Position numbers and translations under genes: made by a program | Assembly (NCBI GenBank): GCA_964551835.1 | Contig: CAZKEM010000046.1 | Location: forward strand, 1-24,387 | Direction: 5' to 3' | Length of the DNA stretch: 24,387 bases | Origin: an uncultured Acidimicrobiaceae bacterium | Lineage (GTDB): Bacteria; Actinomycetota; Acidimicrobiia; Acidimicrobiales; SZUA-35 | In this document: positions 4,811 to 24,043 of the stretch, piece after piece | Layout: each line of letters opens with the position of its first letter | Numbering within the stretch: position 1 is the stretch's first letter | Notes under the pieces: model-generated | Told to the model about the DNA's origin: nothing | Database searches by the model: none | What the model saw: only the letters and a program-made list of their open reading frames with translations

Positions 4811-5799
4811 AGTCCCTCCAAGACTTCGCGAGTAAGCCGATCACTGTAGCGATGAAGTTTCCAGTGCCCCGGGCTCCAACCTTGCAGGAAGCGACAGAAG
4901 TCTGTCCAGGCGACCGGATAGAGTTCGCGCCAGTCCGCCTCTAATGCAGCGAAGTCCAGCAGCTTGCCAGAAACCGTTAACGCGTCTTCTAGTAGTTCGA
5001 AGTAACGGTCGAGCAGACCAGGGACCACTACTTCGCTGTCGTCTTCGTCGAGACAGCTGCTAACAAAATAGGCAACGTCCTTCATGCCGCAGCCGCCTCC
5101 CACATACTGAAAGTCGACAGCAGCGACACGGCCACCGTCGACGTCGAAGCAAAAGTTCGCCGCCTTGGCATCCCCATGAACGAAGGTCTGAAACGGGCTA
5201 CTCTCGAGCCGACGATCGATAGTTTCGGCCGCCGCCTTAAGCGGACCATCTTCAAGAGCGTCGAGTTCGTCTGGGCGAGTCGCCAAGTGCCAATAGGTGC
5301 CCGTGGACCACAGTCCTTTGGGCCGCTCACCCATGAAGGTGGCGTGAAAACTAGCCAACCACGCCAGACAGGCTTCGAGCTCGGCTTCGTTCAGTTGTCG
5401 GCGTCGCCCTGAAAACCCCGACTCATCAAGATCTTCCAAAACAATAACTACCCCATCGGGCAGCGTCTTGCGGGCTAGACAACGGGGCACACGACAGGTA
5501 GCGGGACATCTCTCCCCGTACCGGTCGTACCACGTCGTCTCGACCTGGTAAGAACGTAACTTCCGCTCGTGGGAAAGGTCGGAACTCCAGCCGTACGGAT
5601 GGTCACGGTGGTTGGGCCAAGTGACGTGCTTGACGATCACACTGGTTTGCGGCCCGCCCTCGAGACGGAGCCGCATGATTTGCCCGTACCCACTCCACAG
5701 GCTCTGAACGACCTCGGTGTCGAGGACAGCTCGAGCATTGGCGGCACCGAGTACCACAGTCTCCAAACTCTTCGTCAGTTCGGCATCGGCTTTGCTCAC
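4807..5799 (-). CDS. phosphotransferase-family kinase (APH/ChoK/CHK-like fold), 330 aa
   Basis: Brenner motif HGDAKAANF and a DFQ (DFG-equivalent) segment VDFQYVGGG. The N-terminal glycine-rich segment [13 protein letters not shown]...VIVKHV is a nucleotide-binding loop. GTG start lies 3 nt after the SDR stop. Confidence 0.8.
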
Positions 5800-5802
5800 T
5801 GC

Positions 5803-6354
5803 TTACGGCCACCGGCTCAGAGACAGCAGTTTCCACAGAGTTCTCAACCCGACGCTAGCTGTGTCGTTCAGCAAGTTTGTTTTCGACGCCCCGGGGTGGC
5901 AGACCTGGACTTGAACGCTCCTGCCCTCAGCCTCGACTCGGCGTTGAAGCTCGAAGTGGTTCTCGCCAAGCTGGCTTTCAAACCCGTCCACGGTTATTTC
6001 TTGCTTGGCCACCTGCGCTATTGCCGCGTTGCAGATGACAGCATCGATGTGGGGTACCTTTTCGAGTAGCTCGGCTGCGGATTCCCGCACAGAATCCAAT
6101 ACTGCGAGGTCCATGCGTACGAACGATACGGCAGCGTCATCGCCGAATTCCTGTTTCAGCGACGCTATGGCGGTGGCTGATTTGTCGGCGTTGCGGTTCA
6201 TCATCACCACCGACGCGCCCTTGGAAAGAAACATCCGTGTCGCCTCGAACCCAGTGCCAGTGTTGGCTCCTGTGATTACGTATGTCTTGGGTGCGGGGGA
6301 TCCGAGTCGCTCCGGGGTCCAACCATCTGGTCCGAATGTGTTCTTGGTATTCAC
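5803..6354 (-). CDS. short-chain dehydrogenase/reductase (RDH-like) remnant, 183 aa. It retains the Rossmann motif and the C-terminal PG motif but lacks the Ser-Tyr-Lys catalytic segment, so it is probably inactive or a pseudogene.
   Basis: Rossmann motif TGANTGTGFE and NNAG-like CNAAI are present. The later part reads VDGFESQLGENHF...VCHPGASKTNL. The only Tyr in the whole ORF is in the N-terminal KTYVITG, so there is no YxxxK. The NNAG to HPG spacing is about 43 aa, against about 90-100 in functional SDRs. Confidence 0.55.
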   Translation of the reverse strand: MNTKNTFGPDGWTPERLGSPAPKTYVITGANTGTGFEATRMFLSKGASVVMMNRNADKSATAIASLKQEFGDDAAVSFVRMDLAVLDSVRESAAELLEKVPHIDAVICNAAIAQVAKQEITVDGFESQLGENHFELQRRVEAEGRSVQVQVCHPGASKTNLLNDTASVGLRTLWKLLSLSRWP

Positions 6355-6570: not shown

Positions 6571-7662
6571 ATGAGGAAAGCAATTCTAGCCGGAGTAACG
6601 GCATCTGTACTGCTTGTCAGCGCTTGTAGTTCTACCGGTGGTTCGGCTGATCCCAATGGTTCAGCAGAGTCCACCGTTCCCACTGGAGCGCGTGACACGG
6701 TCCCAGGCCCAAATGAGTTGGATACTTCTGGCGACAACGATCCGGCACCGCCGACGGAAATTGAAAAGCTGACTCCCGGTCCTGCATTTGGTGTTTCAGA
6801 TGTCGAGGTAAAGGCTCTATCTGAAGGAGCTGGGGTAACACAAGAAGCCGCAGAAGTATTTGAAGAGGTTGACTTTCTGAACTTCGTCTACGAATTCGAT
6901 ATCGGTATAGAGTCCATGAACCAATTTGAAACCGTCGACGGAGAATATCTGGACGAGGACCTCTTCTTTGCGGTGACCAATATTCAATACGGTGATATCG
7001 GTGAAGACGGAGCGGTTGAAGCTGTCGTCTATGTGCACTACAACACCGGCGGGACGGGCCAGTTTACCGATGTCATTGTCTATGGACTGGATGACGGCGG
7101 TGCCCCAGTGCAACTCGCCACCGCTGGCTCAGGCGATAGAGCTAATGGGGGTATTGAATCGGGCCGGATACGAGATGGAAGCCTTCAACTGTCGAGATTT
7201 GAGGGCGACGCTGCTTGCTGTCCGACCAAGGTCCTCACCTATGAGTATCGAGATTGGAAAGATGGATTTCTCCAGCCTTTAGGCGAACCTGAGAAGGAAG
7301 CGTTTGTATCGTTTGACGGCCCGCCAAATGTCAATCCTCCCGACTACGATTCGTCCGAGTTGAAATTTCTTCCGGGCACTTCATCTGCTCGGATGTTCGG
7401 TTCAGGAGACTCCAACCCGTTAACGTTTGAGGCCTTCAAGGGCCAGACTACGAGAGTAGAACTCACCTCAGAGATATTTGGCCAGGTAAGCCTTAGTCTG
7501 ACCGATTCGACAACCGGCGAAGTTCTGGGAGAAATACAAGTGAACACTGCAATTACCGTTGAGCTGCCAAACGACGGCGAATATGTACTAACACCTTCGG
7601 TTATCAGTGCCGAGCTAGATGATGTTTCCCCAGGTTTCGAAGCAGAGATACAAATCAACTAG
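6571..7662 (+). CDS. secreted, highly acidic lipoprotein of unknown function, 363 aa
   Basis: Signal peptide MRKAILAGVTASVLLVSAC with lipobox VSAC. The mature part is D/E/G/T-rich and contains a CC pair (DAACCPTK). Confidence 0.8.
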   Translation: MRKAILAGVTASVLLVSACSSTGGSADPNGSAESTVPTGARDTVPGPNELDTSGDNDPAPPTEIEKLTPGPAFGVSDVEVKALSEGAGVTQEAAEVFEEVDFLNFVYEFDIGIESMNQFETVDGEYLDEDLFFAVTNIQYGDIGEDGAVEAVVYVHYNTGGTGQFTDVIVYGLDDGGAPVQLATAGSGDRANGGIESGRIRDGSLQLSRFEGDAACCPTKVLTYEYRDWKDGFLQPLGEPEKEAFVSFDGPPNVNPPDYDSSELKFLPGTSSARMFGSGDSNPLTFEAFKGQTTRVELTSEIFGQVSLSLTDSTTGEVLGEIQVNTAITVELPNDGEYVLTPSVISAELDDVSPGFEAEIQIN

Positions 7663-9517: not shown

Positions 9518-11254
9518 CTACTCGGCATCACGCCTAAGCGGTGCGCAATTCTCGGCTGCGGCCACGCGAGCCTGGCTTCTGCCGTAGTTCCATCCAAGTA
9601 GTCCGTACTCGGCCTTGACCTGTCGCTTAGCCGAGCAATATTCTTCGATGTGAGTACTGCTTGACCAGCGAGACTTTTCGTCGAACCGGTCGAGGTTAGC
9701 CACGATGACCGGTGTGGCATCGCTGGACAGGTTAAGAAGGTAGTCCTGGTCGAGAGCGACGATGGTGGTGTCTCGGCTGAGGTTTGTCGATGCGACGAAG
9801 TGGTCTGGGTTCGATAATCCAAACAGAATCAACATGGCACACCCGAAGGCCTGCACCAAAGGGATTGGTCGAGGAGTCCGGCGGGTGAAGCCAAACAGCG
9901 AGGACTCGGGCAGTATCGCCCGTTTACTGACGATAAGTAACGTGCCGAACAACCAGACGAGGAACCACGACACTGACAGCCTCGTACCGGTTAGTCCGAA
10001 CGAACCGATATAGAGGTTCATTTTCGACAACGCCACCGCGGTCAACGCCATGGTTTCGATAGTCAGAACGCCGACGGCGACCTTACTCCACGGCGATCCG
10101 TTTGTGGTCGACCGTTTGAAGAACCGCCCAGCGATTGCGATGACCGCCACAACAATTGCTGCCACCGCTACGAGTTGGAAGAAACCTTCCCGCGCATAGT
10201 CGGCCCTCGTTAAACCCGCGGTGCGGAAGATGATGTCGTCTCCTTCGGAAATGACGACTAGTTGGACGGCGCACCAGGCGGTCAGAGTCGCAACAAGGCC
10301 AGCAAACACTAGAAGTAGCTCAAGCGGAAATGGCCTAGCTTCGTCTGAAATCTCTTCGGCAAGTGGTTTAACCGCAGCAGACTCCGGGCGGGTTACGCTG
10401 ATTACCAGCCCGACCAAGAATGGGAAGAAGACAGCGATAACGATCACGTGGCCGACCGACGACCCGGGTGATTCGACGCTTGGAATTAGCGAGGCGAAAA
10501 TTGCGTCCCCGCTAGCGAGTAAGGCAATGACTGGTACCGTGATAGTCGCCGCGAGAGCGACACCTCGAAGCAACCTGAGCAAGTTCGGTCCGTTTCGAGA
10601 CACGTCGGCGGTTTGGGACCACGAGAACACAAGCCAGCTTGGGAACCGGAAGATGTCCATCAAATAATGACCGAACGAGGTCACCTGTTGAATCGTGCTC
10701 TTCGAAGGCAGGTCGACCGACGCTGAGAACAACAAAGCCAGAATCATGATCCAGGTTGGGACCGTGACCACCAAGGCTGACCGAAGAACAATATTTATGC
10801 CAGCGGCTACGGCCAGAGCCGCAGATGTAGCAGCGGTTGAGGTAAGTGTCTGAGCTCGGTGGCGGGCCAACAGTATTGCCGCCGCCGTCAGGACGATTGT
10901 GCCGAAGCCGCTGACCGACGACCAGCTGCTATGCGAGGCGATGTCAAGAAAGATCGCAGCTAGAAGCGGCAAGATGATAAGTAGTGGCGATGCGGGCATC
11001 GAGAACGAAGGTCTGAGCTTTCTCGCAGTCGTGCCCTTTTTGGGTGGCGCAGGCTGTTGAAATAGGAAGGGCGCACGAGTCAGGGCCGGGGATGGGATCC
11101 TCGGATGGCCTGCAGCATCAACCGCATTTTCGGCCGCGATGTTTGGTGTGCCAGCTGGCGTTACCGGGGGCCCCATCTGTGGTGAATTTGGAGGTCCAAA
11201 GACCGGCCGCGGGTCGGGTTCGGGCGTCGTTGAACTAGGGTCGTTATCAGTCAT
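9518..11254 (-). CDS. polytopic integral membrane protein with Pro-rich N-terminal tail, 578 aa. Family unknown; possible accessory component of the adjacent two-component system.
   Basis: The first ~100 aa are Pro/Ala/Thr-rich with no predicted TM segment. At least 10 hydrophobic segments follow, then a ~100-aa soluble C-terminus. AAGGA lies 5 nt before the ATG. The start is 19 nt downstream of the histidine kinase stop, so the two are probably co-transcribed. Confidence 0.75.
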   Translation of the reverse strand: MTDNDPSSTTPEPDPRPVFGPPNSPQMGPPVTPAGTPNIAAENAVDAAGHPRIPSPALTRAPFLFQQPAPPKKGTTARKLRPSFSMPASPLLIILPLLAAIFLDIASHSSWSSVSGFGTIVLTAAAILLARHRAQTLTSTAATSAALAVAAGINIVLRSALVVTVPTWIMILALLFSASVDLPSKSTIQQVTSFGHYLMDIFRFPSWLVFSWSQTADVSRNGPNLLRLLRGVALAATITVPVIALLASGDAIFASLIPSVESPGSSVGHVIVIAVFFPFLVGLVISVTRPESAAVKPLAEEISDEARPFPLELLLVFAGLVATLTAWCAVQLVVISEGDDIIFRTAGLTRADYAREGFFQLVAVAAIVVAVIAIAGRFFKRSTTNGSPWSKVAVGVLTIETMALTAVALSKMNLYIGSFGLTGTRLSVSWFLVWLFGTLLIVSKRAILPESSLFGFTRRTPRPIPLVQAFGCAMLILFGLSNPDHFVASTNLSRDTTIVALDQDYLLNLSSDATPVIVANLDRFDEKSRWSSSTHIEEYCSAKRQVKAEYGLLGWNYGRSQARVAAAENCAPLRRDAE

Positions 11255-11273
11255 AGGTTTCCTTAGCTGCTCG

Positions 11274-12329
11274 TTAGGCCACAGAAGTGGTCAATACGAT
11301 CGGATCTGTTTTGTTGTCGTCGATTCTTTGACGAGGCATGTCGATAACAAAGCATGAACCGTGAGGTTTGTTGGACGAAACTTCGATCGTTCCACCATGT
11401 TGGTCCATAATCTGTTTGCTGATTGCTAAGCCGAGCCCGGCGCCGCCCCCAGAAAGTCGTGACACGCCTTCGGCTTGCCAGAACCGTTCAAAGATCCGTT
11501 CCTGTGATTGTTCGGGAATTCCTGGACCGTTATCGCGCACCGATATTCGAACTCGGTCTCGGTCTTGGGTCGCCACTACGGTCACTTCGTCGCCGTTGTT
11601 CGAGAATCGGCTGGCGTTGCTAATGATGTTCATGACAACTTGTCGGAGTCGGTACCGCTGAGCGTTGACAAGTAAGTGGACTGGGGTGCGGATGACTATC
11701 CGAACGGTCGGGTCGGTGAGCATGACTTCGCTCGACACCTCATGTAGTAAGTCTCCAATATCGACCGGTTCGGTGTGTGAAGTTCGGGTTGAGCCTGCGT
11801 CCAGGCGTGACAGGTCGAGTAGTTGGTTAACTAGTACCGATAGGTTCTCGGCCCGTAGAAGCATCTGTTCAAGCGTTGACCGTTCGGGTTGTTCTACGCC
11901 ATCGACGAGGTTCTCTAACGTCGAGCGCAAGGCGGCGACTGGGGTTCGCAGTTCGTGCGATGCGTTGGCGACGAACTCCTTTTGTAGCCGGTCGGTTTCC
12001 GCCAGTTCGTCGACCATTCGGTCGAACGCCGTCGCGAGCTGGCCTACTTCGTCTCGGCGGGTGATGTCGATTCGTTCGGAGTGGTCGCCGTTGGCCATGT
12101 TGGTCGCGACCACCGCCATTCGACGTAGGGGGGGCGTGAGACCTCGGGCGAGGAACTGAGCCATCATCAGCGCTAGCGCTCCGGCTGCCACGGGCCTAAC
12201 CCAGATGGGCCATCCGAGCGTGAGGCCGAGTTGGCTCATAAAGGCGGTGACCGCTACCGAGGCGACGATGACGATTGAGATTTTGGTTTTGACCGATCGC
12301 ATGTGGTCGAGTGGTTTGAGTCTGTTCAT
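11274..12329 (-). CDS. sensor histidine kinase, HisKA/HATPase_c, intramembrane-sensing type (about 351 aa)
   Basis: Two TM helices separated by a ~7-aa loop (PIWVRPV), then HAMP, H-box SHELRTP, N-box MNIISNASRFS, G1 DNGPGIP and G2 GLGLAIS. ATG at 12329 overlaps the response regulator stop (ATGA). The ORF track extends artificially to 12479. Confidence 0.9.
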   Translation of the reverse strand: MNRLKPLDHMRSVKTKISIVIVASVAVTAFMSQLGLTLGWPIWVRPVAAGALALMMAQFLARGLTPPLRRMAVVATNMANGDHSERIDITRRDEVGQLATAFDRMVDELAETDRLQKEFVANASHELRTPVAALRSTLENLVDGVEQPERSTLEQMLLRAENLSVLVNQLLDLSRLDAGSTRTSHTEPVDIGDLLHEVSSEVMLTDPTVRIVIRTPVHLLVNAQRYRLRQVVMNIISNASRFSNNGDEVTVVATQDRDRVRISVRDNGPGIPEQSQERIFERFWQAEGVSRLSGGGAGLGLAISKQIMDQHGGTIEVSSNKPHGSCFVIDMPRQRIDDNKTDPIVLTTSVA

Positions 12330-13015
12330 CCTTTGATGCCTTCTTCGGTACTGGGCGTAGCTGCGAGTGCGTAGCCGACGCCGTGAACTGTGCGGATTGG
12401 GTTCGTAGAAAATTTGGATCGCAGCGACCTGATATGTGAGTCGACGGTTCGTGTGCCCGACCCGTCTCGGTACCCCCAAACCGTTGCCAACAATTGTTCT
12501 CGGCTTCGCACGCCCCCGGAAGATTCGCAGAGGGCTCGTAGAAGGTCAAATTCGGTGGGGGTGAGGTGGAGTTCTTGGCCGTTTTCGAGAACCCGTCGAG
12601 TGGCTGGTTCGATCGTAATGTCGCCGTGGACGAATGGTTCTCCTTCGACGGCCGCTTCGGCGCGTCTGAGGACGGCCTTGGTGCGTGCCATGAGCTCGCG
12701 GCTGGAGAACGGTTTGGTGATGTAGTCGTCGGCGCCGACACCCAGGCCAACCAACATGTCGGGTTCATCGTCTCGGGCTGTGAGCATTATGACCGGGATC
12801 CGCCGATGGGTGTGGATTCGTCGGCAGACCTCGAGGCCGTCGAACCCGGGCAAGTTGAGGTCGAGGACTACGAGGTCGGGCGCGAGTTTGTTTGCTGCTT
12901 CCACAGCGCTCGGCCCGTCGAAACAAGATTCGACGTCGAACCCTTCGCTGCGGAATCGGTTACTGACTGCACGGTTTATTGTGGGATCGTCTTCCACCAC
13001 CAAAATCAACTGCAT
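12326..13015 (-). CDS. OmpR/PhoB-family response regulator, 229 aa
   Basis: Receiver domain with DD, phospho-accepting D in VVLDLNLPGFDG, T and K (ITKPF). Winged-helix C-terminus LTPTEFDLL...VWGY...RTVDSHIRSLRSKF. Confidence 0.9.
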   Translation of the reverse strand: MQLILVVEDDPTINRAVSNRFRSEGFDVESCFDGPSAVEAANKLAPDLVVLDLNLPGFDGLEVCRRIHTHRRIPVIMLTARDDEPDMLVGLGVGADDYITKPFSSRELMARTKAVLRRAEAAVEGEPFVHGDITIEPATRRVLENGQELHLTPTEFDLLRALCESSGGVRSREQLLATVWGYRDGSGTRTVDSHIRSLRSKFSTNPIRTVHGVGYALAATPSTEEGIKG

Positions 13016-13119: not shown

Positions 13120-15372
13120 CTATGCGACGAGTTCGGCGAGTTTAGTTGTCGGGATCCGCCACAGTCCGACACGGTCTCGGTCTGACCCCATAAACACGAT
13201 TTCGTCGTTGAACTCGACCGCATTCCAAATACTTGTTTTAGACGAGAATTCGTCGGGCTCAAATCCGGTTGGGCCGTCTTCGTTTGTTAGCGCCTCCCAG
13301 GTGTCGCCCTTGTTGAACCAAACTTGACCAACCTCTTTGCCGGTCTCTTCGTCAACGCCAGAGCCAAGAGCAAGACGCATTCCGCCGAGCTCGACCACTT
13401 CGTTGACGTCATCATCTTTTGTGCCGATCTCGACAATCGACCAACTGGACATGTCAGCAGAGGTCGCGACGAGAGAAGTGCCGTCGGGTGTAGAACCCCA
13501 GATGGCCAGTGAATCGCCTACGGATCGGCAGTCTGAGATCGAATCGAATTGATCGAACTGCGGGTCTGCTGGTTGAGCTTGCCAGGACCTACCATCGGCG
13601 GATATCGCAAGTCGAGCGTTGCCGAACTCGTCAACGATCACGGACACCAACGTGTCTCCGACCGAAGCGAAACAGCGGACAGCCGGCCTTGCCCCGGGTA
13701 GTGTAATCCCTTCGATTGGAGCCGGTTCCAGGTCCCCGGTGACGGGAGCGAAGTAGAACTTTAGGGCCTGTGAGCCACCTGCGAAGAAGTCCGCACCGCC
13801 TACTATCGCTGAGCCGTCTTCACGGCTTAATGTCTCGTTGAATTGGCTCCGGGTCGTCTCTTGCCCGGTGGGAAGTTGCTGACGTTCGGAATTGGTGTTG
13901 GGCTGGATTAGTGAACCGCCCCATCCCGCAAGCTCTTCGGACTGGGATGCGATGGTCAGTTGATCGCCGTTGGCGTCGGAGTCCGTAGTTGCGAACCCAC
14001 GTTGGCCGACTGTTGAGCCGCTCCACGGTTCATCAGCCGCTCCGGTCCATGTCTGAGGAGTCGGAACGGTATCCAGGCCAGACTTTACATAGTTGGTGCC
14101 AGTGATCACTAGCTTGCCGTCGATCACATGAATATCGTTTTGCCCAAAAGAATCGTTTGAGACAGGTAACTCAGGGTGTTGTATCGGGCTCCACGACCCG
14201 CTGGTGGACCGAACGAGTTTAGATCCGGATCCGATAAGTAACGAATCTCCTGAAGCGCTGAACACGCTGTCGTCGATTCCCTGCGGAGTAACCCCCGAAC
14301 GGATAAGCCCAGAAAATTCGACTGAGCTTGCGGAATTGGACATGACGATTGGATCTTGAAGGAACGGCTCGCTAATGGAAAAATAGACTCGTTCGCGATC
14401 TAGCGCTATCGATGACAACCCATAACCGCCTTTGACAGTACGTCCCTCTGCGAACGTGATAGTTAGGTCGAAAGAGTCCCAAGCCTCGTTGTCGGCGGTC
14501 CTTGAGAACGCAGCAGGCTCATCGACTTGCTCACTTCGTTGTGCACCAACCGTCACGAGTCGTCCGTCGGGTAGTTGTGAGATATCGGAGAGGTAGCCTT
14601 CGTTGAAGCCGTCCATGGGGGCCGGCTCAGCTACCAGCTGTCCGGAATTCTCAGTCCAGAAAAGCGGCGTAGCCTTGGAGTCCTTTGACTGCCAGCCGAC
14701 GCCAAGTAGAGTCCCATCGTCAAGCGTAATGAGCGAACCAAGTGCCATATCGGTTTCGGTACGATCGCCAATATCGATCTCGACCGATTGCCACGTGTCG
14801 CCACTGCGTCGCCAGACCGCTGGAACGTCATAGTCATCAACTTCGCTAGACCCGCGAAGTACGTTGCCGTCAGGCGAGATGCCGCTGGCGTAAGAATCTC
14901 GACCGGGTACATCAAGCTCTACGAGCTGCCACGTGTCGCCCTCTTTGAACCACACAGCAGCTTTCGATCCCGCTTCGTCGGTCACGCTGCCAACGGCAGT
15001 GACACTAGTTTCTCCCACATGCATTTCGAAAACACGCCCCGAGATGGCACCATTTAGTGGGAGCTCCTCGCGGTTTCCATCGTTTCCGTTCGGAGCGTGA
15101 AGCACAAACGGGACCGATCGCCGCTCGCTGGTCTTGTTCATCGAGCCAGCCACGTACCAGCCAAGCTCGTTGGCGGGGTCGATCAAGCCGGCGTTTATGC
15201 TGGCGTAGTCGTCGGTGATCGTGGTTAACTCGTTGGGCCATGGTTGGACGAGAGGTTCGGACTGCTGCGGGCCTTGCGGCTCCGTTGTGTTATCGGGACT
15301 CGCTTCACTCGAAAAGAACGAACAGCCCGTTGCCAGGAGCGAACAACAAAGAGCAACCACCAATATTCTCAT
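13120..15372 (-). CDS. large secreted lipoprotein with BNR/Ycf48-like beta-propeller repeats, about 750 aa
   Basis: Signal peptide MRILVVALCCSLLATGCS (lipobox LATGC) from ATG 15372, with GAGG 6 nt upstream. Recurrent motifs AAVWFKEGDTWQLVELD, PAVWRRSGDTWQSVEID and GQVWFNKGDTWEALTNE are typical of BNR/Ycf48-type propeller blades. The ORF track extends to a TTG at 15399. Confidence 0.75.
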   Translation of the reverse strand: MRILVVALCCSLLATGCSFFSSEASPDNTTEPQGPQQSEPLVQPWPNELTTITDDYASINAGLIDPANELGWYVAGSMNKTSERRSVPFVLHAPNGNDGNREELPLNGAISGRVFEMHVGETSVTAVGSVTDEAGSKAAVWFKEGDTWQLVELDVPGRDSYASGISPDGNVLRGSSEVDDYDVPAVWRRSGDTWQSVEIDIGDRTETDMALGSLITLDDGTLLGVGWQSKDSKATPLFWTENSGQLVAEPAPMDGFNEGYLSDISQLPDGRLVTVGAQRSEQVDEPAAFSRTADNEAWDSFDLTITFAEGRTVKGGYGLSSIALDRERVYFSISEPFLQDPIVMSNSASSVEFSGLIRSGVTPQGIDDSVFSASGDSLLIGSGSKLVRSTSGSWSPIQHPELPVSNDSFGQNDIHVIDGKLVITGTNYVKSGLDTVPTPQTWTGAADEPWSGSTVGQRGFATTDSDANGDQLTIASQSEELAGWGGSLIQPNTNSERQQLPTGQETTRSQFNETLSREDGSAIVGGADFFAGGSQALKFYFAPVTGDLEPAPIEGITLPGARPAVRCFASVGDTLVSVIVDEFGNARLAISADGRSWQAQPADPQFDQFDSISDCRSVGDSLAIWGSTPDGTSLVATSADMSSWSIVEIGTKDDDVNEVVELGGMRLALGSGVDEETGKEVGQVWFNKGDTWEALTNEDGPTGFEPDEFSSKTSIWNAVEFNDEIVFMGSDRDRVGLWRIPTTKLAELVA

Positions 15373-15397
15373 TTGAACCTCGGAACTATTAGTAAAC

Positions 15398-15460
15398 AAG
15401 CAGTAACGAAACGCTTTTAAAGAGCGTTTGCAGACAATAGCAGTTACTATCAGTAAGCGC
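15398..15460. promoter_or_regulatory. AT-rich divergent control region: 21-nt near-perfect palindrome AAACGCTTTTAAAGAGCGTTT (15409-15429) flanked by CAGTAA-type direct repeats
   Basis: Palindrome with 9 of 10 complementary arm positions. Repeats AGCAGTAAC (15399-15407), AGCAGTTAC (15439-15447) and ATCAGTAAG (15449-15457); the last two are 10 bp apart. It lies 37-57 nt upstream of the lipoprotein ATG and about 110-170 nt upstream of the NfeD-like gene. Confidence 0.4.
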
Positions 15461-15568
15461 CAATTGGCTTCTAGTTATTCGAAATACCTGCTAGGCCGAC
15501 ATAAAGAGAAACAACATATTGACTAAGATCGCAATAACTGGGGCGGTGCCGCAACGAGCTGTTGTTGT

Positions 15569-16300
15569 GTGTTTATCCCACAGAAGCGGAAAGTTGGGGG
15601 CGTGGAGAGCTTTATAGACACAGCAACGAGTTATCCAGTGTCGATATTCACCGTCCTGCTAGCTACGAGCATCGGTTACTGGCTGATCTCGACCGTGCTT
15701 GGCTTGGGTGATTTTGGTCTTGACAGCGATATCGGTATAGACGCCGACGGTGGATTCGAGGTTGAAGCCGGACCCGCCAGCGACGGTTTCGCCATCGAAG
15801 GCGACGGCTTCGACGGCTCAAGTGATGGCCCATCGTTTGCAACAAACTTGGCGATCATAACTGGAATAGGTGTGGCGCCGTTCAACATAGTGATCTCAAT
15901 ATTTTCGCTTGCCGCGTGGACAATGGCGATGCTCGCAATGACCACTTTTGGGTCTCTACCGCTTCTGCCCGCAACGTTTGTTCTGATAGTAGGTGTCATC
16001 GTCGGGCTAGCAGTATCAGGTCGGGTCGCCCGTCTACTTCGCCCTCTATTCGTTGCCCAGACAGCAACGAAACATGAACAGTTAATCGGCCGGATCGTCA
16101 CCATACGAACTGGGCGAGTCGACGCCACCTTCGGACAAGGCGAGATCGACGGGCCAGGAAACGAAGACCACATCGCTCAAATCAGATGCCATGAAAAAAA
16201 CGACTATACAACCGGAGACCGAGCGCTCGTCGTAGCCGTCGACGATGGCGGAATTTTCACGATCTCATCAGACAAAAACATAATTAAAACGATCGGCTGA
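15569..16300 (+). CDS. NfeD/YqiJ-like membrane protein with C-terminal OB-fold (short-form NfeD), 243 aa from GTG 15569. Alternative GTG start at 15602.
   Basis: N-terminal TM, then an acidic D/G-rich insert (nt 15710-15838), two or three further TM helices, and a C-terminal beta-barrel segment GRIVTIRTGRVDATFGQGEIDG...GDRALVVAVDDGGIFTIS, as in NfeD/YuaF/YqiJ. It lies directly upstream of a flotillin gene, the classical pairing. Confidence 0.75.
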   Translation: MFIPQKRKVGGVESFIDTATSYPVSIFTVLLATSIGYWLISTVLGLGDFGLDSDIGIDADGGFEVEAGPASDGFAIEGDGFDGSSDGPSFATNLAIITGIGVAPFNIVISIFSLAAWTMAMLAMTTFGSLPLLPATFVLIVGVIVGLAVSGRVARLLRPLFVAQTATKHEQLIGRIVTIRTGRVDATFGQGEIDGPGNEDHIAQIRCHEKNDYTTGDRALVVAVDDGGIFTISSDKNIIKTIG

Positions 16301-16375
16301 TCGCAGTCCGCGGCTCGGTTTCATCGTAACAACACCTCTAAACAACGATTTTCATCTTGAAAGGCAAGGCGGTTC

Positions 16376-18379
16376 ATGCAAGCATTAGCGTCCATCGCAA
16401 CGGCAGTAGTAATTCTCCTCGGATTCATTTTCTTAATCGGGTTCTTTGTGACCCGGCTCTACCGGAAGGTGCCACAGGGTAAAGCGCTTCTCGTCAGCAC
16501 CACCAGAGCTGTAGTGGTAACGTTCACTGGCCGCATCGTTTTGCCGGTCATACATAAAGCCGAGGTCATGGATATCTCGGTTAAGAACATCGAGATCGAC
16601 CGACGCTCCACCGAAGGCCTCATCTGTCGAGACAACATCAGAGCCGACATTAAGGTCAACTTCTTCGTTCGGGTAAACAAAGCAGAACAAGACGTTGTTA
16701 AGGTCGCCCAAGCAATTGGGTGCGAGCGCGCCTCGGACCCGACGACGCTGGAAGAGCTCTTCGCCGCCAAATTCTCTGAAGCGCTTAAAACCGTCGGCAA
16801 GCAAATGGACTTCGAATCGCTCTACCTCGAACGAGCGATCTTCCGTGACCGCATCATCGAAGTGATCGGTACCGACCTCAACGGCTACTCCCTTGAAGAC
16901 GTCGCCATCGACTACCTCGAACAGACACCGCTCGAAAAACTCGACTCGACCAATATTCTCGATGCCCAAGGCATCCGTAAGATCACCGAGATGACCGCCA
17001 TCCAACACGTAGCGACCAACGTCGCAGCGCGTGAAGAAGAAAAGCAAATAACCGCCAAGAACGTTGATACCAAAGAAGCTGTTCTTGAGCTCGAGCGGCG
17101 ACAAGCAGATGCCGAAGCCCGCCAACAGCGCGAAATTCTCGCCGTTCGTGCCCGAGAAGAAGCGACCACGGCAACCGTCCAAGCCGAAGAGCGCCTCAAG
17201 TACGAGATGGCGACGCTTGAAGTAAACCAAAAGCTCGGCATCGAGCAAGAGAACCTCGACCGAGAAGTAACCGTCGCCGCGAAAAACCGTGAACGAGTAA
17301 CCGCCGTCGAACAAGAACGAGTCGACAAAGCACGCGAACTCGAAAACATGAGCCGCAAGGTCGAAACCCTGTCGGCCGAAAAAGCGTTGGAGCTCGAGAA
17401 GTCGACGATCGCCGACATCAAACGTGAACGAGTAGCGGTCGAACGGACCGTAGCCGAGGAAGAAGAAAAGATCGAAACGCTTCGAGCGGTCGAAGGCGCA
17501 GACCGAGTCCGCCAAGCCGCAGTCATCGAAGCCGAAGCTTCAGCGCAGGGTGACTTTGTTCGCGATATCAAAGCAGCAGAGGCAGCTGAAGCTGCGTCGG
17601 AACACTTGGCGAAGGAAAAGATCACCCTTGCCAAAGCTTCGCTTGACGCTTCTGACCTAGAAGCTCGTGCTGAGATTCGACTGGCCGAAGGCGCGAAAGC
17701 ATCGGCGGCCGCCAAAGGTCTCGCATTCGTCCAAGTCGACGAGGCGCGCGCCGACGCCAACGAAAAACTTGGTTTGGCCGAAGTCCGAGTCGACACGGCT
17801 AAGGCCGGAGCGATCAAAGAACTCGGCGAAGCTGAAGCGGCCCGGCTACGAACCGAAGGCCTCGCCGAAGCCGGAACGATCGAAGCCAAACTCAAAGGTG
17901 AAGCAGCCGGCCTGATCGAAAAAGCCAGTGCGATGAAAGAGCTAGAAGACGCCGGGCAGCAACACGAAGAATTCATCCGCAAACTTGAAGCCGACACAGA
18001 GGTACGTTTGGCCAAGGTCGAAGCAGGCGTCAACGTCGCATCCGTCCAGGCTGATGCTATGAAAGCCGGGTTCGAGGCAGCCGACATTGACATCGTCGGC
18101 GGGTCTGACGTGTTCATCGATCGTGTGGTCGGATCGATTGGGCACGGAAAAGCCGTAGATAATTTCTTCGAAAAGTCCGACGTTGCCGGCACCGCCATGG
18201 GGCCATACCTAAACGGTGAAAAAGACCTGCTCGCTACCTTGACCAACGCGGTTGGAGTTCTTGGAACGGACGGCATTCGAGACCTAACCATTGCGGACCT
18301 GATTCGTCGGTTCGGTGGCCAACTCGGAAACGGTAGTAACGGCTTGCCCGGAGGCGATAGCGCCGACGACGCCAAATGA
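16376..18379 (+). CDS. flotillin-family SPFH (band 7) protein, YqiK/FloT-like, 667 aa
   Basis: N-terminal membrane hairpin AVVILLGFIFLIGFFVTRLYRKV and SPFH core KALLVST...IEIDRRSTEGLICRDNIRADIKVNFFVRV. A long E/A/R-rich coiled-coil region (about nt 17024-18056) and a flotillin-type C-terminal tail follow. Confidence 0.9.
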   Translation: MQALASIATAVVILLGFIFLIGFFVTRLYRKVPQGKALLVSTTRAVVVTFTGRIVLPVIHKAEVMDISVKNIEIDRRSTEGLICRDNIRADIKVNFFVRVNKAEQDVVKVAQAIGCERASDPTTLEELFAAKFSEALKTVGKQMDFESLYLERAIFRDRIIEVIGTDLNGYSLEDVAIDYLEQTPLEKLDSTNILDAQGIRKITEMTAIQHVATNVAAREEEKQITAKNVDTKEAVLELERRQADAEARQQREILAVRAREEATTATVQAEERLKYEMATLEVNQKLGIEQENLDREVTVAAKNRERVTAVEQERVDKARELENMSRKVETLSAEKALELEKSTIADIKRERVAVERTVAEEEEKIETLRAVEGADRVRQAAVIEAEASAQGDFVRDIKAAEAAEAASEHLAKEKITLAKASLDASDLEARAEIRLAEGAKASAAAKGLAFVQVDEARADANEKLGLAEVRVDTAKAGAIKELGEAEAARLRTEGLAEAGTIEAKLKGEAAGLIEKASAMKELEDAGQQHEEFIRKLEADTEVRLAKVEAGVNVASVQADAMKAGFEAADIDIVGGSDVFIDRVVGSIGHGKAVDNFFEKSDVAGTAMGPYLNGEKDLLATLTNAVGVLGTDGIRDLTIADLIRRFGGQLGNGSNGLPGGDSADDAK

Positions 18380-21300
18380 CCGAACCCCAAAAGGAAGACC
18401 AGGCGGCCGTCGACGAAGACGTCGCCGTCGAAGAGGGTGCAGGCGCGGAAGCGTCGCAACCTCAAACCGAGGGTTCAACAGTTGCACAAAGCACGTACGA
18501 ACTGCTGCAACAACGGCTCGTCGACGCGGCCAAAGAACTCGCCGGTCGAGCTGAGCGGCTCAACGAACTCCGGCTAGACACGTTCGGTTCAAGCCAGCTA
18601 GACCTGGCGGGAACCGAACGCGTCCGGACCGAGAACAACGTCGTGCCGCGCGACATTGCGGCTGCAGGCAACCAGCTAGTGATGGCCTACAACGCAACCG
18701 CCGGCACTCGCTCAGAGATCCGGCCCGAGGACGTCTTCAGTATTCACCACCTCGACGACTCGTCGGAAAAGTTGGTGCTCAGCCCCAACCCTGACGGACT
18801 AGTCAACTCTGCGCTCGACGACGACCAGTTCCGACGAGACTTCGAAGAACTCCACACCTACTTCCAAGACGCCAGAGTCCAGCAGGTCTACGAAACGAAC
18901 CAGAAACTGCTCGTCGTCTTCCGAACCGGCGACGGAGTCAACGATTTACGCGTCCTGCGTTGGCTGATCCACCCCGACGGTGAACTGTCATACATGGACG
19001 ACCGGGGCGAGCGAGACCACCGCTTTCCTCCCCATCAAAATGTCGAATGGCAACAGACGACTCGGGCCGACCATCTCGAAAACCGGGTGATCGTGGTAGA
19101 GGACCGCATTCACGTCAACCCGCTCGATGGCAAACTGAACGTCGCTCTGACTGACGGTACGCCAGGCGGGCTGGTGCTGGTCGACGACGACGTAGAGGAG
19201 TCGGACCAATCTCTCCAAGATTGCATAGTCGACTATGCGCTGGCCGGTGACCTGGTCATTCTGCGTATCCTTCCGTACCGGGAAACCGTCCGGCGTCACT
19301 ACGTCATAAACCTTCTAGCCCGCACGGCTACCCGAGTCGACGCCTTAGACCAAGCCTTTCGACTCCTACCTGAAAACCAAGGCCTGATCTTTCCCGAAGG
19401 AATTTATTTACGCACAGGCGAGGTCCGCACGTTTGACCTTGACGCCGACGACATGGAACTGCTCGAAGTTCTTCGTTCCCCCAACGGCGAAGACGTCCTC
19501 TACGTCTTCCACCACAAAGACAACGGCCGTTCGATTTTGTTACCCTACAATGTCGTACGTCAAGAAGTCGCCGTACCGATTTGGTGTCACGGTCATTGCC
19601 TGTTCCCCGACGGCACGATGCTTATCTTCCGCGAAGAACCGCAACCTACACGGATTCACCCAGTGCAGATCTGGCGGACACCATTTTGCAGTGATGAATG
19701 GTTTAGCGAACAACCTCAGACATCGAGCCCGCTCGACCGTATCGGCAATGCTAGCCTGGTGGCCGGCATCGCCGACGCGTTAGCGTTACAACGACTGGTC
19801 GTCCGCCTCGAACCATCATCGGAACTCTACGGTGACTTGCTAGGTACCGCCGGTCGGACACTTGACACCCACCACTGGTTCGACGCCGAAGAAGTCGGGA
19901 ATCTCGCTCAGCCAGTCCAGGACATACGCTCAATCGCCGAACAAGTAATCGAAGAGTTCGAACAGGTCCAACAGGTCAGAGCAAGCGCACGAGAAGCCCT
20001 TGGTGAAGCCCGCGAGTCCTTGGCCGATGTCCAGCAAGAATTACGTATCAACCCTCCGGAGTCGACGGAAGACTTTATCGACCGTCTAAGCTCTATCCGT
20101 CACGAGATCGGCCATCTGCACACGATTAAAGAGGTCCGCGAGATCGACATCTCGGCCGTCGACACCTTGATCGAAGAGGCAACCGAAGTCCGACAGACCG
20201 TAGCCCAAGACGCAGCCAGCTACCTAGCTCAAGATGACGCCTTCGGATCCTATGTGGCTGACCTCGACGAGCTGTCTGAGAAGAACCGGAACGTCACAGC
20301 GTCGATTGAGGTGGCCAGCATTCTCGAAGACGTCGACGGTGTGGCCAATTCGATGGACACTGTGGCCGACGCTATCGGTGTTCTCGTGGTCGACGACCCG
20401 CAAATCCGGGCGTCGGTCCTCGAACAGGTCTCGTCGGTCTTAGCGAACTTGAACAGAGTTCGGGTTGAAGCTCAAAACAACCATGACACTTTGATCCAGA
20501 GTGAAACCGGTGCGTTGTTCGCAACCGAACTGGGGCTTTTTGGTCAAACCATTTCAACCACGTTAGCTCGTTGTGACAGCCCCGAAGCATGCGATGACGG
20601 CTTGGCCCGTCTACTACTACAACTCGAACAGCTTGAAACTGCAGGACCGAGATCGGAAACCCAGCTCGACGAGTTGAACGAACGGCGTGACCATCTGGTC
20701 GAAGTGTTTACGTCTCGTCGTCAGCAGCTGCTCGACGATAGCCAGAAACGAGCCGACCAGTTAACTTCTGCGGCGCGGCGTACTTTACAACGGGTCGCTG
20801 ACCGTTCAGCACGGCTTGAATCGATCGACGATATCAACGGGTTCTTCGCCGCCGACGCGTTAATCGACCGCGTAAGACGCATTATCGAACAGTTGAAGGA
20901 TTTGGGCGAACCGGTTCGCGCAGACGAACTGCAGGCATCGCTGGGTAGTTCGCGAGATTCCGCCATTCGGGCACTGCGGGACAGGCTTGAACTGTTCGAT
21001 CGTGGGGCTGTGAAATTGGGCCAACATCGGTTCAGTGTTGATGAACGCCAACGCGAATTGACGTTGGTCCCGTTCGAAGACCATCTCGACGCTGTTCTTA
21101 CCGGCACCGACCTTCGGATGCCGGTCGCCGATGAATCCCTAGCCGCTCATCGGGCCTTATGGGACCAAGCTGTTCCTTCGGAAACCAATGAGATGTACCG
21201 CTCAGCGTACTTGGCGGCCTCGATTGCCTTAGACGCTTTGGAAGGTGACGATGCAGCCACAGAGGTCTTGTCGAACGTCGGCCCAGCCGATGGTGACGAC

Positions 21301-23301
21301 GACACCTCGACGATCGTCTCCTTTGTTCGTGACGTCACCAATGATCGGATAGACGAAGGTTACGATCAGGGCGTTCACGATCTCGACGCCGCCCGTATCT
21401 TGGCCGTCATCGGACCCAAGGCGTTAGCTGCAGGCTCGCTCCTGTATGCGGGTTCCGATCGCGCCGCGGCGCGTTGGGCCTGGAATTTTGAGTTTGACGA
21501 CGAAAAGCAATCGATTTGGACCCAGCGCGGCAATGCAGCCGCGGTATTAGAGACAGACGTGGCGACCATCGCAGCGATGGCGAACGAGCTGGCCGAAGAA
21601 CTCAAACTTACCGAAGCGCAAAGTCGATACCTCATGGGTGAACTCGTCACCAAAGACAACCTTGGGTTTGCTATCTCGACCTCGATACAAGACCACGTAG
21701 CGTCGCTACGGTCGAACGCCTCGGTGAAGAAACTGATCAAAGAACTGAACCACGACGCCGACGGAATCCGGCCGGTACTCGCCAACTTCATCAACCGACA
21801 CACGGACCTGCACGTCGATGACGTCGAAGAGTTGGCGGTCTTGCTGTTAACCCCAGACCTACAAAGCTACGTTGTAGACATCGACCTAAGTTTCGAGGTG
21901 CCCGGTCTGTCCGGGGGTCATCAAACGATTGAAGGCCGGCAACTCGCTGGTCGCATCGATTCTCTTTTCCAGATGGCCCAAACTCATCGCCGCGTGGTTA
22001 TGCCCGCCCATCAAGAGTTCAATACAGCCCGTCGAGGGGTGATCAAGTCACTCCGTTCAGATCTACGACTCGACGATCTCGAACCGCAGGTCCCCGAAGG
22101 GTTCGTCCGAAACAAACTGATCGACAAGTTGTACCTGCCGCTAATCGGCGACAACTTGGCCCGCCAGATCGGTACCGCTGACGACCAGTCCGCAGCCCGA
22201 AGCGGCTTGTTGATGTTGCTGTCGCCTCCGGGCTACGGAAAGACAACTCTGGTCGAATACATCGCTGATCGCTTAGGCATGGCATTGGTCAAGGTGTCTG
22301 GCCCCGCGTTGGGTCACGAAGTGACATCACTCGACCCGGCGTTGGCGCCCAGCGCAACCGCGGCTCGTGAAGTCGAGCGCATCAACATGTCGTTCGCTGT
22401 TGGCTCGAACGTCATTTTGTATCTCGACGATATTCAACACACCAGCCCTGAATTGCTCCAACGTTTCATCTCGCTGTGTGATGGGCAACGGCGAATCGAC
22501 GGAGTCTGGAATGGCGAAGCTACGACGTTTGACCTACGCGGCAAACGCTATGCCATCGTGATGGCTGGAAACCCGTACACCGAGTCGGGTGAACGGTTCC
22601 ACATTCCTGACATGTTGGCCAACCGGGCCGACATCTACAATCTAGGCGACGTGTTGTCCGGAAACGAAGACGTTTTCGCTCACTCTTATATTGAGAATGC
22701 GTTGACCGCTAATGCGGTGTTGGCGATGCTTGCCGGACGAGACCGAAAAGACGTCGACGTGTTTATGGCTGCCGTTGACGGCAAGCCGTTGGACGAAACC
22801 AGGCTGAGCCATACCTACAGTTCGGCCGAACAGCGCGACATCGTGTCAGTGCTCGGGCATTTACGTCGGGTGCAGAACGTCATTTTGTCGGTCAATCGAC
22901 AGTACATCAAGTCGGCGGCCACTGACGAGAAGTACCGCACAGAGCCGCCGTTCCTCTTGCAAGGTTCGTACCGAAATATGGCGAGAATGGCTACAAAGCT
23001 ATTGCCGGTGATGACGCCAGACGAAGTCAATGTGATTATCGACGAACACTATGTGGCCGAGTCTCAAGCCTTGACCGGAGACGCTGAAGCCAACCTTTTG
23101 AAACTTGCCGAGCTGCGAGACGTCATGACGCCGGAACAGCAGGACCGTTGGGCAGATATTCTCGAAACCTTTAGACGTCAGCAGCGGCTGGGCGGCGACG
23201 AACGTGACCCAGCTACAAGAATGGTGGCCGCGATAAACGAGGTTGCTTCGGAGCTGAGCAACATCCGTAACGGTGTCAGTGGTGATGAAGCCGCTAGCTA
23301 G
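18376..23301 (+). CDS. 1641-aa protein with C-terminal MoxR/dynein-class AAA+ ATPase module. The N-terminal ~1270 aa is of unknown function.
   Basis: The ATG overlaps the flotillin TGA (ATGA at 18376-18379) and there is no SD within range. Walker A LLSPPGYGKTTL (22231-22248). Walker B ILYLDDIQ (22414-22437). Sensor-1/Arg segment MAGNPYTESGERFHIPDMLANRADIY (22561-22638), matching ATQNP.E..GTY.LPEAQLDRF of MoxR ATPases. Sensor-2-like QGSYR in the lid. Confidence 0.85.
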   Translation: MTEPQKEDQAAVDEDVAVEEGAGAEASQPQTEGSTVAQSTYELLQQRLVDAAKELAGRAERLNELRLDTFGSSQLDLAGTERVRTENNVVPRDIAAAGNQLVMAYNATAGTRSEIRPEDVFSIHHLDDSSEKLVLSPNPDGLVNSALDDDQFRRDFEELHTYFQDARVQQVYETNQKLLVVFRTGDGVNDLRVLRWLIHPDGELSYMDDRGERDHRFPPHQNVEWQQTTRADHLENRVIVVEDRIHVNPLDGKLNVALTDGTPGGLVLVDDDVEESDQSLQDCIVDYALAGDLVILRILPYRETVRRHYVINLLARTATRVDALDQAFRLLPENQGLIFPEGIYLRTGEVRTFDLDADDMELLEVLRSPNGEDVLYVFHHKDNGRSILLPYNVVRQEVAVPIWCHGHCLFPDGTMLIFREEPQPTRIHPVQIWRTPFCSDEWFSEQPQTSSPLDRIGNASLVAGIADALALQRLVVRLEPSSELYGDLLGTAGRTLDTHHWFDAEEVGNLAQPVQDIRSIAEQVIEEFEQVQQVRASAREALGEARESLADVQQELRINPPESTEDFIDRLSSIRHEIGHLHTIKEVREIDISAVDTLIEEATEVRQTVAQDAASYLAQDDAFGSYVADLDELSEKNRNVTASIEVASILEDVDGVANSMDTVADAIGVLVVDDPQIRASVLEQVSSVLANLNRVRVEAQNNHDTLIQSETGALFATELGLFGQTISTTLARCDSPEACDDGLARLLLQLEQLETAGPRSETQLDELNERRDHLVEVFTSRRQQLLDDSQKRADQLTSAARRTLQRVADRSARLESIDDINGFFAADALIDRVRRIIEQLKDLGEPVRADELQASLGSSRDSAIRALRDRLELFDRGAVKLGQHRFSVDERQRELTLVPFEDHLDAVLTGTDLRMPVADESLAAHRALWDQAVPSETNEMYRSAYLAASIALDALEGDDAATEVLSNVGPADGDDDTSTIVSFVRDVTNDRIDEGYDQGVHDLDAARILAVIGPKALAAGSLLYAGSDRAAARWAWNFEFDDEKQSIWTQRGNAAAVLETDVATIAAMANELAEELKLTEAQSRYLMGELVTKDNLGFAISTSIQDHVASLRSNASVKKLIKELNHDADGIRPVLANFINRHTDLHVDDVEELAVLLLTPDLQSYVVDIDLSFEVPGLSGGHQTIEGRQLAGRIDSLFQMAQTHRRVVMPAHQEFNTARRGVIKSLRSDLRLDDLEPQVPEGFVRNKLIDKLYLPLIGDNLARQIGTADDQSAARSGLLMLLSPPGYGKTTLVEYIADRLGMALVKVSGPALGHEVTSLDPALAPSATAAREVERINMSFAVGSNVILYLDDIQHTSPELLQRFISLCDGQRRIDGVWNGEATTFDLRGKRYAIVMAGNPYTESGERFHIPDMLANRADIYNLGDVLSGNEDVFAHSYIENALTANAVLAMLAGRDRKDVDVFMAAVDGKPLDETRLSHTYSSAEQRDIVSVLGHLRRVQNVILSVNRQYIKSAATDEKYRTEPPFLLQGSYRNMARMATKLLPVMTPDEVNVIIDEHYVAESQALTGDAEANLLKLAELRDVMTPEQQDRWADILETFRRQQRLGGDERDPATRMVAAINEVASELSNIRNGVSGDEAAS

Positions 23302-24043
23302 AGGGAGTATTTTCGTTGAGTATTTTTTTCGGAGTGCTATTTAGTTCGGATCGAAACGCCGCGATATATGAGCTTGAGGTTGCGTAACCGCTCGCTAAAG
23401 CGATCTCGGTCATCGACTTCTCTTGTGAGAGCAGGTCGAGCGAAAAGAGTATCCGGCTCCGTCGTTGCCATCCGGCTAACGTCATAGCGGTCTCCGATCG
23501 GAAGATTCGTTCGAGCGTGCGTCGGCTCGCCGCCACCGTTGCGATGGCGTCGCCGAGTGTGATGGTGGGGTTATTGGTTAGAACCGTGGCTAAAGCTTGC
23601 GCACGCGAGTCGGCTGGGAACGGAAGGTGCAGCGGCGCAGTAGGCGCGGCTGCGATTTGGTCGAGAACGACTTGAATCAACGCCTCGTTGCTTGGGGTGG
23701 CTAGCGAAATCGGGCATTGTTTGACGACATGGAGTAAAAGCTCGCGGGTGAAGGTATTGGTGGATACAACCCGGTTGCCCGATCGCAGCGCCTTTAGTTC
23801 GTGGCGAAAGTAGAGGCACCGCATCGCGGTCGGTCGCCGGGTTCGAGCACGGATGGTTGTACCGTCGGTGACACATAAGGCCCGGTGAGGCGGTACGGTC
23901 CACGACTCCGACGAGGAAGATGCCACAAATAGCCCAGATTTCGAATACAAGACTTGGTCCCAGCCGGCCTGAGTCGGTAGGCGTACCTCGCCGGTCGGGT
24001 GGGTTACGGCGTAACTTCGGACCGAAGGCTCTTTGTGTCGCAT
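23294..24043 (-). CDS. AraC-family transcriptional regulator (N-terminal cupin/AraC-binding domain plus C-terminal HTH_18), 249 aa
   Basis: C-terminal dual HTH LGDAIATVAASRRTLERIFRSE...MTEIALASGYATSSSYIAAFRSELNSTP. GAGG 6 nt before ATG 24043. The 3' end overlaps the stop of the 1641-aa gene by 8 nt (convergent). Confidence 0.85.
   Translation of the reverse strand: MRHKEPSVRSYAVTHPTGEVRLPTQAGWDQVLYSKSGLFVASSSSESWTVPPHRALCVTDGTTIRARTRRPTAMRCLYFRHELKALRSGNRVVSTNTFTRELLLHVVKQCPISLATPSNEALIQVVLDQIAAAPTAPLHLPFPADSRAQALATVLTNNPTITLGDAIATVAASRRTLERIFRSETAMTLAGWQRRSRILFSLDLLSQEKSMTEIALASGYATSSSYIAAFRSELNSTPKKILNENTPSS

Follow-up and report, generated by a model that had tools for sequence, protein, structure and literature searches.

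A YqiJ/NfeD-like protein, a YqiK-type flotillin and a giant MoxR-like ATPase encoded by a conserved three-gene cassette in an uncultured Acidimicrobiaceae bacterium

Introduction

The operons yqiJ-yqiK of Escherichia coli and yuaF-floT of Bacillus subtilis encode an OB-fold protein with three transmembrane (TM) helices followed by a flotillin. A cassette at positions 15569-23301 of a 24,387-nt stretch of DNA from an uncultured Acidimicrobiaceae bacterium (contig CAZKEM010000046.1; "the window" denotes this full stretch) likewise starts with such a pair. It differs from both operons, which have no downstream AAA+ gene, in that the pair is followed by a gene for a 1641-aa ATPase (hereafter, the giant ATPase), and its flotillin is approximately 110 aa longer than YqiK. 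HflK/C-FtsH, in which an SPFH cage encloses an AAA+ protease, is a conceptual analogue of the flotillin combined with the giant ATPase, although the soluble domains of HflK/C are periplasmic and those of the window scaffold are predicted to be cytoplasmic. A parallel has also been drawn with Vps4 and ESCRT-III (PspA superfamily), a machine consisting of a scaffold and a ring AAA+ protein (PMC11237479). The giant ATPase differs from FtsH and Vps4 in lacking a protease domain, a TM anchor and a MIT domain, and its AAA+ module is of the MoxR type rather than classical. Among MoxR-type proteins, CbbQ and NorQ are approximately 260 aa long and have the VWA partners CbbO and NorD, respectively, whereas the giant ATPase, at 1641 aa, is extended N-terminally by 1250 aa, has no VWA partner encoded nearby, and carries a DD Walker B motif.

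The initial annotation of the window did not recognize the arrangement as a described system. This did not hold, as Ravi et al. (2024, mSystems; preprint 2020; PMC11237479) list an operon with the order YqiJ-YuaF, Band-7+coiled-coil+flotillin, and beta-propeller+coiled-coil+AAA-ATPase, including its abbreviated form. Abbreviated operons without PspA were reported to be more widespread, and a chaperone-like or membrane-remodeling role in assembling membrane-linked complexes was predicted (PMC11237479). The window shares with this operon the three core genes, their order, and the ATPase architecture (propeller-like N-domain, coiled coil, and single AAA+ module), and the Dokdonia entry of Table S3 in the same study agrees with the window in gene order. 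The long form additionally contains genes for DUF2170/CesT-like, PspA, and PLD proteins, whereas the window carries the three-gene form only, with a 4-nt stop/start overlap. The gene association is already published; the window adds one more actinobacterial example, together with a few details, namely the MoxR-like fold of the ATPase, its invariant DD Walker B motif, and the lineage-specific tight junction between the flotillin and giant ATPase genes.

In Pseudomonas aeruginosa, the biofilm-associated cluster bacABCDEF (PA3732-PA3727; PA14_16140-16200) encodes a DUF2170 protein (BacA) and a PspA homologue (BacB) (PMC10948618). Reverse transcription PCR gave products across every bac junction, including bacD-bacE, by which co-transcription has been shown for P. 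aeruginosa only (PMC10948618). In the bacA mutant, BacB to BacF were increased 6-13 fold; bacA and bacB mutants exhibited biofilm, rhamnolipid, and virulence phenotypes, and the bac promoter sequence led to the proposal of a sigma-54 site (PMC10948618). PA14_16160 is a short NfeD protein and PA14_16180 an SPFH protein (PMC13086221). PA3728, which is probably bacE, is listed as an 'ATPase' in a review table, according to which three independent studies of cystic-fibrosis isolates reported mutations in it (PMC8190622).

Results and Discussion

Gene content of the cassette

The cassette consists of three co-directional open reading frames (ORFs) on the + strand, encoding a YqiJ/NfeD-like protein, a YqiK-type flotillin, and the 1641-aa ATPase. 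Their features are as follows.

15569..16300, + strand: gene 1, YqiJ/NfeD-like protein (DUF1449), short form; 243 aa from a GTG start; approximately three TM helices, an acidic loop, and a C-terminal OB-fold
16376..18379, + strand: gene 2, YqiK-type flotillin; 667 aa from an ATG start; one TM helix at the N-terminus; SPFH/Band-7 domain and long EA-rich helical region
18376-18379, + strand: ATGA stop/start overlap (flotillin TGA, giant ATPase ATG), read from the sequence
18376..23301, + strand: gene 3, giant ATPase; 1641 aa from an ATG start; DUF3686 N-domain, helical/coiled-coil middle, and one C-terminal MoxR-like AAA+ module
18535..19875, + strand: DUF3686 domain of the giant ATPase (aa 54-500); N-terminal long helix, then an all-beta propeller-like domain; Pfam E 3.8e-151
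20236..20481, + strand: DUF7902 segment of the giant ATPase (aa 621-702), within the long helical middle; Pfam PF25472, E 8.8e-15
22183..22875, + strand: AAA+ module of the giant ATPase (about aa 1270-1500); Pfam AAA and AAA_5 near aa 1280-1400
aa 1283-1291 of the giant ATPase: Walker A, SPPGYGKTT
aa 1348-1352 of the giant ATPase (22417-22431 of the window): Walker B, LYLDD
N1399 and R1417 of the giant ATPase: sensor-1 residue and putative Arg finger, respectively

The initial annotation had placed three ORFs on one strand at these coordinates, with 75 nt between gene 1 and the flotillin gene. The ORF listing and translations agreed with the former, and the spacing was confirmed by reading the sequence.

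The gene 1 protein by itself yielded no significant Pfam or NCBIfam family match, and pairwise BLASTP against E. coli YqiJ was not significant; its label therefore rests on homologues and profiles. The family profile (A2; 55 sequences) matched E. coli YqiJ with an hhalign probability of 96.3% (E 1.5e-9), and the top match of the gene 1 profile in the PDB was the OB domain of B. subtilis YuaF (2k14; E 0.0044). Homologues with 36-39% identity scored 24.3-24.5 bits against Pfam YqiJ_OB, narrowly missing the cut-off of 25.4. Hydrophobic segments were located at aa 24-47, approximately 91-127, and 122-157, so that a multi-pass N-terminal part accompanies the OB-fold homologous to YqiJ/YuaF, as in short NfeD/YqiJ proteins. 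Pfam scans detected no protease match in gene 1, ClpP-like domain included, consistent with the short form. The earlier designation as a short-form NfeD/YqiJ-like OB-fold protein was thus supported at the profile level only (YqiJ by hhalign, and YuaF 2k14). Regarding its start codon, the family consensus of gene 1 homologues opens at V12 (MxxFL, corresponding to VESFI), and an SD-like (Shine-Dalgarno-like) GGAA/GGGG element is located 5' of GTG 15602, with none 5' of GTG 15569. Because the homologue consensus begins at the former position and SD-like purines precede only that GTG, the true start of gene 1 is probably GTG 15602, giving a protein of 232 aa.

The window flotillin by itself had no usable Pfam or NCBIfam match. 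BLASTP against E. coli YqiK showed 28% identity over 469 aa (E 9e-36), spanning the SPFH and helical regions and extending to aa 461, inside the EA-rich region of the flotillin. A homologue 70% identical to the window flotillin (P0014) had a Band_7 match above the cut-off (E 7e-10), and homologues at 56-73% identity, several of them matching Band_7 above its cut-off, carry the source names flotillin, SPFH, or YqiK. The protein contains one hydrophobic segment (aa 1-30) followed by basic residues, and thus combines an SPFH domain identified by sequence with an N-terminal anchor and a long EA-rich helical region, as expected of a flotillin. The YqiK alignment and the Band_7 match in P0014 bear out the earlier identification of this 667-aa protein as a flotillin.

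The giant ATPase contains no hydrophobic TM segment, from which a cytosolic location is predicted. Its homologues share the same architecture and a size of 1600-1900 aa. DUF3686 was represented by 635 sequences in 1.84 billion clustered proteins, and among the matches listed, those that appeared complete (longer than approximately 1500 aa) comprised 1500-2040 aa, mostly 1600-1900 aa; this domain is found almost exclusively in the giant architecture of 1600-1900 aa. Comparison of the giant ATPase with the PDB, by sequence or by profile, gave a match confined to the Walker A region, and the middle region with DUF7902 had no match to any solved structure. The structures closest to the AAA+ module were the MoxR chaperones CbbQ2 and NorQ. 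Together with the MoxR-type core and the AAA_5 match, this agrees with the MoxR-class AAA+ label originally given to the 1641-aa protein.

Next, we focused on the residues of the AAA+ module. The Walker A motif, the sensor-1 Asn, and the putative Arg finger were invariant across the alignments of the giant family. The Walker B motif ends in DD and not in the canonical hhhhDE form, and both residues (D1351 and D1352) were invariant in alignments of 12 and 76 homologues. An aromatic pore-loop motif was not found after strand beta-2, where the conserved sequence was GPALGHxVTSLDP. Typical MoxR ATPases have a VWA partner. No VWA-domain partner was detected in the cassette, among the scanned window ORFs, or in the conserved neighbor clusters. 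Taken together, the DD Walker B motif and the absence of both a VWA partner and an aromatic pore loop point to a MoxR-like conformational remodeler rather than a threading unfoldase.

Conservation of the gene linkage

To assess whether homologues of the giant ATPase are enriched beside flotillin and NfeD genes, which the initial annotation had proposed as a means of refuting its own interpretation, metagenome contigs were scanned with the family alignment. The scan yielded 80 loci, nearly all with a full-length giant ATPase (a few were cut at a contig end) that was 35-44% identical to the window protein; the neighborhood statistics therefore describe metagenome contigs and not taxonomically labeled genomes. 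Of the 58 loci with at least 2.5 kb of upstream DNA, 55 had a flotillin homologue immediately upstream of the giant ATPase gene and in the same orientation, demonstrating the enrichment. The YqiJ-like gene was present in 46/50 loci for which at least 3.6 kb of upstream DNA was available. The functional link among the three genes is thus real. The triplet was also found in the same order in Streptomyces sp. NBC_00287 and in two complete Acidimicrobiia-like genomes, the latter with flanks unrelated to those of the window. As the flanks are unrelated in relatives, the triplet constitutes a self-contained unit. One candidate from a single-sequence scan of genome contigs (L001) was rejected as a spurious P-loop match.

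The metagenome loci reproduced the PspA, DUF2170, and PLD extensions of the operon of Ravi et al. A PspA/IM30 gene was located just 5' of the YqiJ-like gene in 16 loci, either adjoining it or separated by a small ORF only, and was on the same strand in 15 of these (divergent in L079). A DUF2170 (YjfI-like) gene was also found upstream in 14 loci, and a PLD-family (PLDc_2) gene in 8 loci, usually just downstream of the giant ATPase gene. On a Hymenobacter plasmid, the annotated order was Tir chaperone, PspA, DUF1449, hypothetical protein, and 'DNA repair ATPase'. The P. fluorescens megaplasmid pQBR103 (L089; NC_009444.1, 85112-97641) carries a yjf-like cluster (PspA, rhomboid protease, DUF2491, DUF350, DUF1190, and a glutathionylspermidine-synthase-like protein), followed by genes for a hypothetical protein, an SPFH protein, and a 'DNA repair ATPase'. 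The scanned window ORFs included no PspA, DUF2170, or PLD gene; lacking an upstream CesT/Tir-like DUF2170 or PspA gene, the window represents the abbreviated form.

Three side observations were made on these loci. A small conserved ORF of approximately 110 aa without a Pfam match lies between the PspA and YqiJ-like genes in seven long-form loci (L039, at 6739-7074, L041, L063, L065, L066, L079, and L085). In the pQBR103 locus, the two PspA contexts treated separately by Ravi et al. are merged. At L025, genes for an AIM24-family protein and an M48 peptidase (4494-6295) occupy the place of the flotillin gene directly upstream of the giant ATPase gene.

Junction between the flotillin and giant ATPase genes

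The flotillin TGA overlaps the giant ATPase ATG, as had been noted in the initial annotation, and apart from this ATG (18376) the giant ATPase gene has no start codon among its first 50 codons. The statement that no Shine-Dalgarno sequence is in range was likewise accurate: none was found within 20 nt of the ATG, and the sole SD-like element (GAGG/GGAGG) sits 21-25 nt upstream, the nearest GGAGG ending 21 nt from the start and thus out of range. The coupled, near-stoichiometric translation deduced from these features, however, went beyond the evidence, as most loci are spaced by 50-130 nt and an overlap does not fix stoichiometry. Junctions from -4 to +8 nt were found in the window, in one of the two close relatives examined, in one Streptomyces locus, and in a few metagenome loci; the individual spacings included a 1-nt overlap in L087, a 5-nt gap in L088, and an 8-nt gap in Streptomyces L004. 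Elsewhere the spacing was mostly 50-130 nt, reaching 450-950 nt in a few loci. The overlap is therefore a lineage-specific trait, typical of Actinomycetota alone with their compact operons, rather than a feature of the system as such. An apparent fusion of flotillin and giant ATPase in one frame without a stop (L045, 1-6045) was rejected: its linker, rich in R, P, and A, is a translated GC-rich spacer and the locus lies at a contig end, so that the fusion is most likely a readthrough or frameshift.

Correspondence with the bac operon

We compared the published bacD/bacE primers with a six-gene Pseudomonas-like locus (L024). The forward primer matched the flotillin gene of this locus at 20/20 bases, and the reverse primer fell on the DUF3686 RTENNCIA motif of its giant ATPase with one indel and one mismatch. 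The long form of the operon agrees with bacABCDEF, and on the basis of the primer matches and the annotations given above, the three genes of the window would correspond to BacC (short NfeD/YqiJ-like), BacD (SPFH/flotillin, PaFlo3), and BacE (the ATPase PA3728). The bac operon differs from the cassette in comprising six genes, with DUF2170 and PspA genes upstream, a sixth gene downstream, and a proposed sigma-54 site, none of which is present in the window.

Functional interpretation

We interpret the cassette, with a probability of roughly 0.55, as an abbreviated envelope-stress operon in which the ATPase remodels, disassembles, or loads a flotillin/PspA assembly during membrane stress. The gene identities, the conserved linkage with its gene order kept across phyla, the cytosolic location of the ATPase, and its MoxR-like fold are results of the searches and predictions described above. 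All soluble domains are predicted to be cytoplasmic, because basic residues follow the TM helix of the flotillin, a basic stretch precedes the YqiJ-like OB-fold of gene 1, and the giant ATPase has no TM segment. In the proposed mechanism, the flotillin would be anchored by its N-terminal helix with its SPFH and helical regions on the cytoplasmic side, and would oligomerize with the YqiJ-like protein into a membrane-attached scaffold, as do other SPFH proteins. The giant ATPase would oligomerize via its one AAA+ module, and the propeller-like heads, borne on long helical arms, could engage either the flotillin scaffold itself or PspA or clients retained in it. ATP binding and hydrolysis would then drive the remodeling, disassembly, or loading of the assembly under membrane stress.

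Several observations weigh against this interpretation. We infer the contact between flotillin and ATPase, the substrate, and the ATPase activity, and the DD Walker B motif, with Asp in place of the catalytic Glu, may make ATP hydrolysis slow or atypical. The lack of a VWA partner and the absence of PspA from the window count in the same direction, as do the three of 58 loci (L020, L025, and L033) in which a full-length giant ATPase gene has no upstream flotillin gene. No such ATPase is encoded downstream of E. coli yqiJK; therefore, the giant ATPase is found with only some NfeD-flotillin pairs, and, judging from E. coli yqiJK, each partner can work alone. Finally, the assignment of PA14_16190 to the giant family is indirect, as it draws on primer matches and annotation, not on the full sequence.

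A more specific version of this interpretation, which we put forward tentatively and regard as somewhat less probable than its opposite, is that the giant ATPase would serve specifically to take apart or reshape bacterial flotillin (SPFH) scaffolds at the expense of ATP, acting in long operons also on PspA (ESCRT-III-like) polymers. Such a dedicated motor could represent a bacterial counterpart of the Vps4 or FtsH/HflKC logic from an unrelated AAA+ clade; a role of this kind has been predicted in outline. A conserved dedicated AAA+ partner would provide an experimental handle on the disassembly and regulation of bacterial flotillin and PspA assemblies, and the P. aeruginosa homologues are tied to biofilm formation and virulence.

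Among other explanations, the cassette might encode a flotillin-scaffolded chaperone, in which a MoxR-like ATPase (cf. CbbQ, NorQ, and RavA) would not act on flotillin itself but would mature or insert a client complex that the flotillin and YqiJ-like protein concentrate at the membrane. The nearest structures, CbbQ2 and NorQ, are MoxR chaperones that remodel specific client enzymes, and the GPALGHxVTSLDP sequence after beta-2, without an aromatic pore-loop motif, fits this idea, as do the three loci that retain the giant ATPase without a flotillin and the chaperone-like role in membrane-linked complexes proposed by Ravi et al. (PMC11237479). However, no conserved client gene or VWA adaptor accompanies the cassette, the flanks differ wholly between relatives, and flotillin and YqiJ are the only universally co-conserved partners; we thus consider this explanation rather unlikely. 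Conflict or anti-phage defense, with flotillin, YqiJ, and PspA sensing or executing membrane damage, the giant ATPase as the sensor or switch, and a PLD effector in the long forms, appears improbable. In its favor, defense systems commonly contain giant NTPases equipped with propeller and coiled-coil sensors; the genes are patchily distributed and also occur on plasmids (pQBR103 and plasmids of Hymenobacter, Deinococcus, and Streptomyces); and a PLD-family hydrolase is encoded in some loci. In contrast, PADLOC returned only weak IetA matches to the Walker A region (E 8e-4 to 4e-3, approximately 30 residues), which do not identify a defense system; the flanks in the window, Streptomyces, and the two complete genomes consist of housekeeping, transport, and regulatory genes, with no defense genes among those matched by Pfam; and the P. 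aeruginosa operon is linked to sigma-54 and to biofilm and rhamnolipid phenotypes.

A true DNA repair ATPase that merely adjoins membrane genes is the least credible of these explanations and very improbable. The source (NCBI) name of the giant family is 'DNA repair ATPase', and the Pfam text for DUF3686 reads 'ATPase involved in DNA repair', but we found no support behind this name, and the neighbors of the giant ATPase are membrane proteins. The weak sequence matches to the P-loop region of RuvB were at P-loop level and below family cut-offs, and neither a DNA-binding or nuclease domain nor a repair-gene context was found for the giant ATPase. The case for DNA repair thus comes down to the name.

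Regions flanking the cassette

The window comes from a genome of 56% GC that is probably Acidimicrobiales-like. The region upstream of the cassette contains one further feature:

15400..15601, no strand: presumed promoter region; divergent intergenic region between a minus-strand ORF (13120-15399) and gene 1

A promoter of the cassette would lie within this region; scans for sigma-70 promoters and terminators gave no signal above shuffled expectation. The divergent ORF (13120-15399, - strand) encodes 759 aa, and this neighbor is not kept beside the cassette in relatives. Together with two other window ORFs, 358-1656 (+ strand, 432 aa) and 6571-7662 (+ strand, 363 aa), it had no Pfam match even at E 0.1. 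Further upstream, 9518-13015 (- strand) is a probable operon encoding an OmpR-type response regulator, a HAMP histidine kinase, and a DUF4153 membrane protein. On the other side of the cassette, a convergent gene for an AraC-family regulator (23294-24043, - strand) overlaps the 3' end of the giant ATPase gene by 8 nt, and the same convergent AraC-family arrangement was present in a second contig encoding an identical giant protein.

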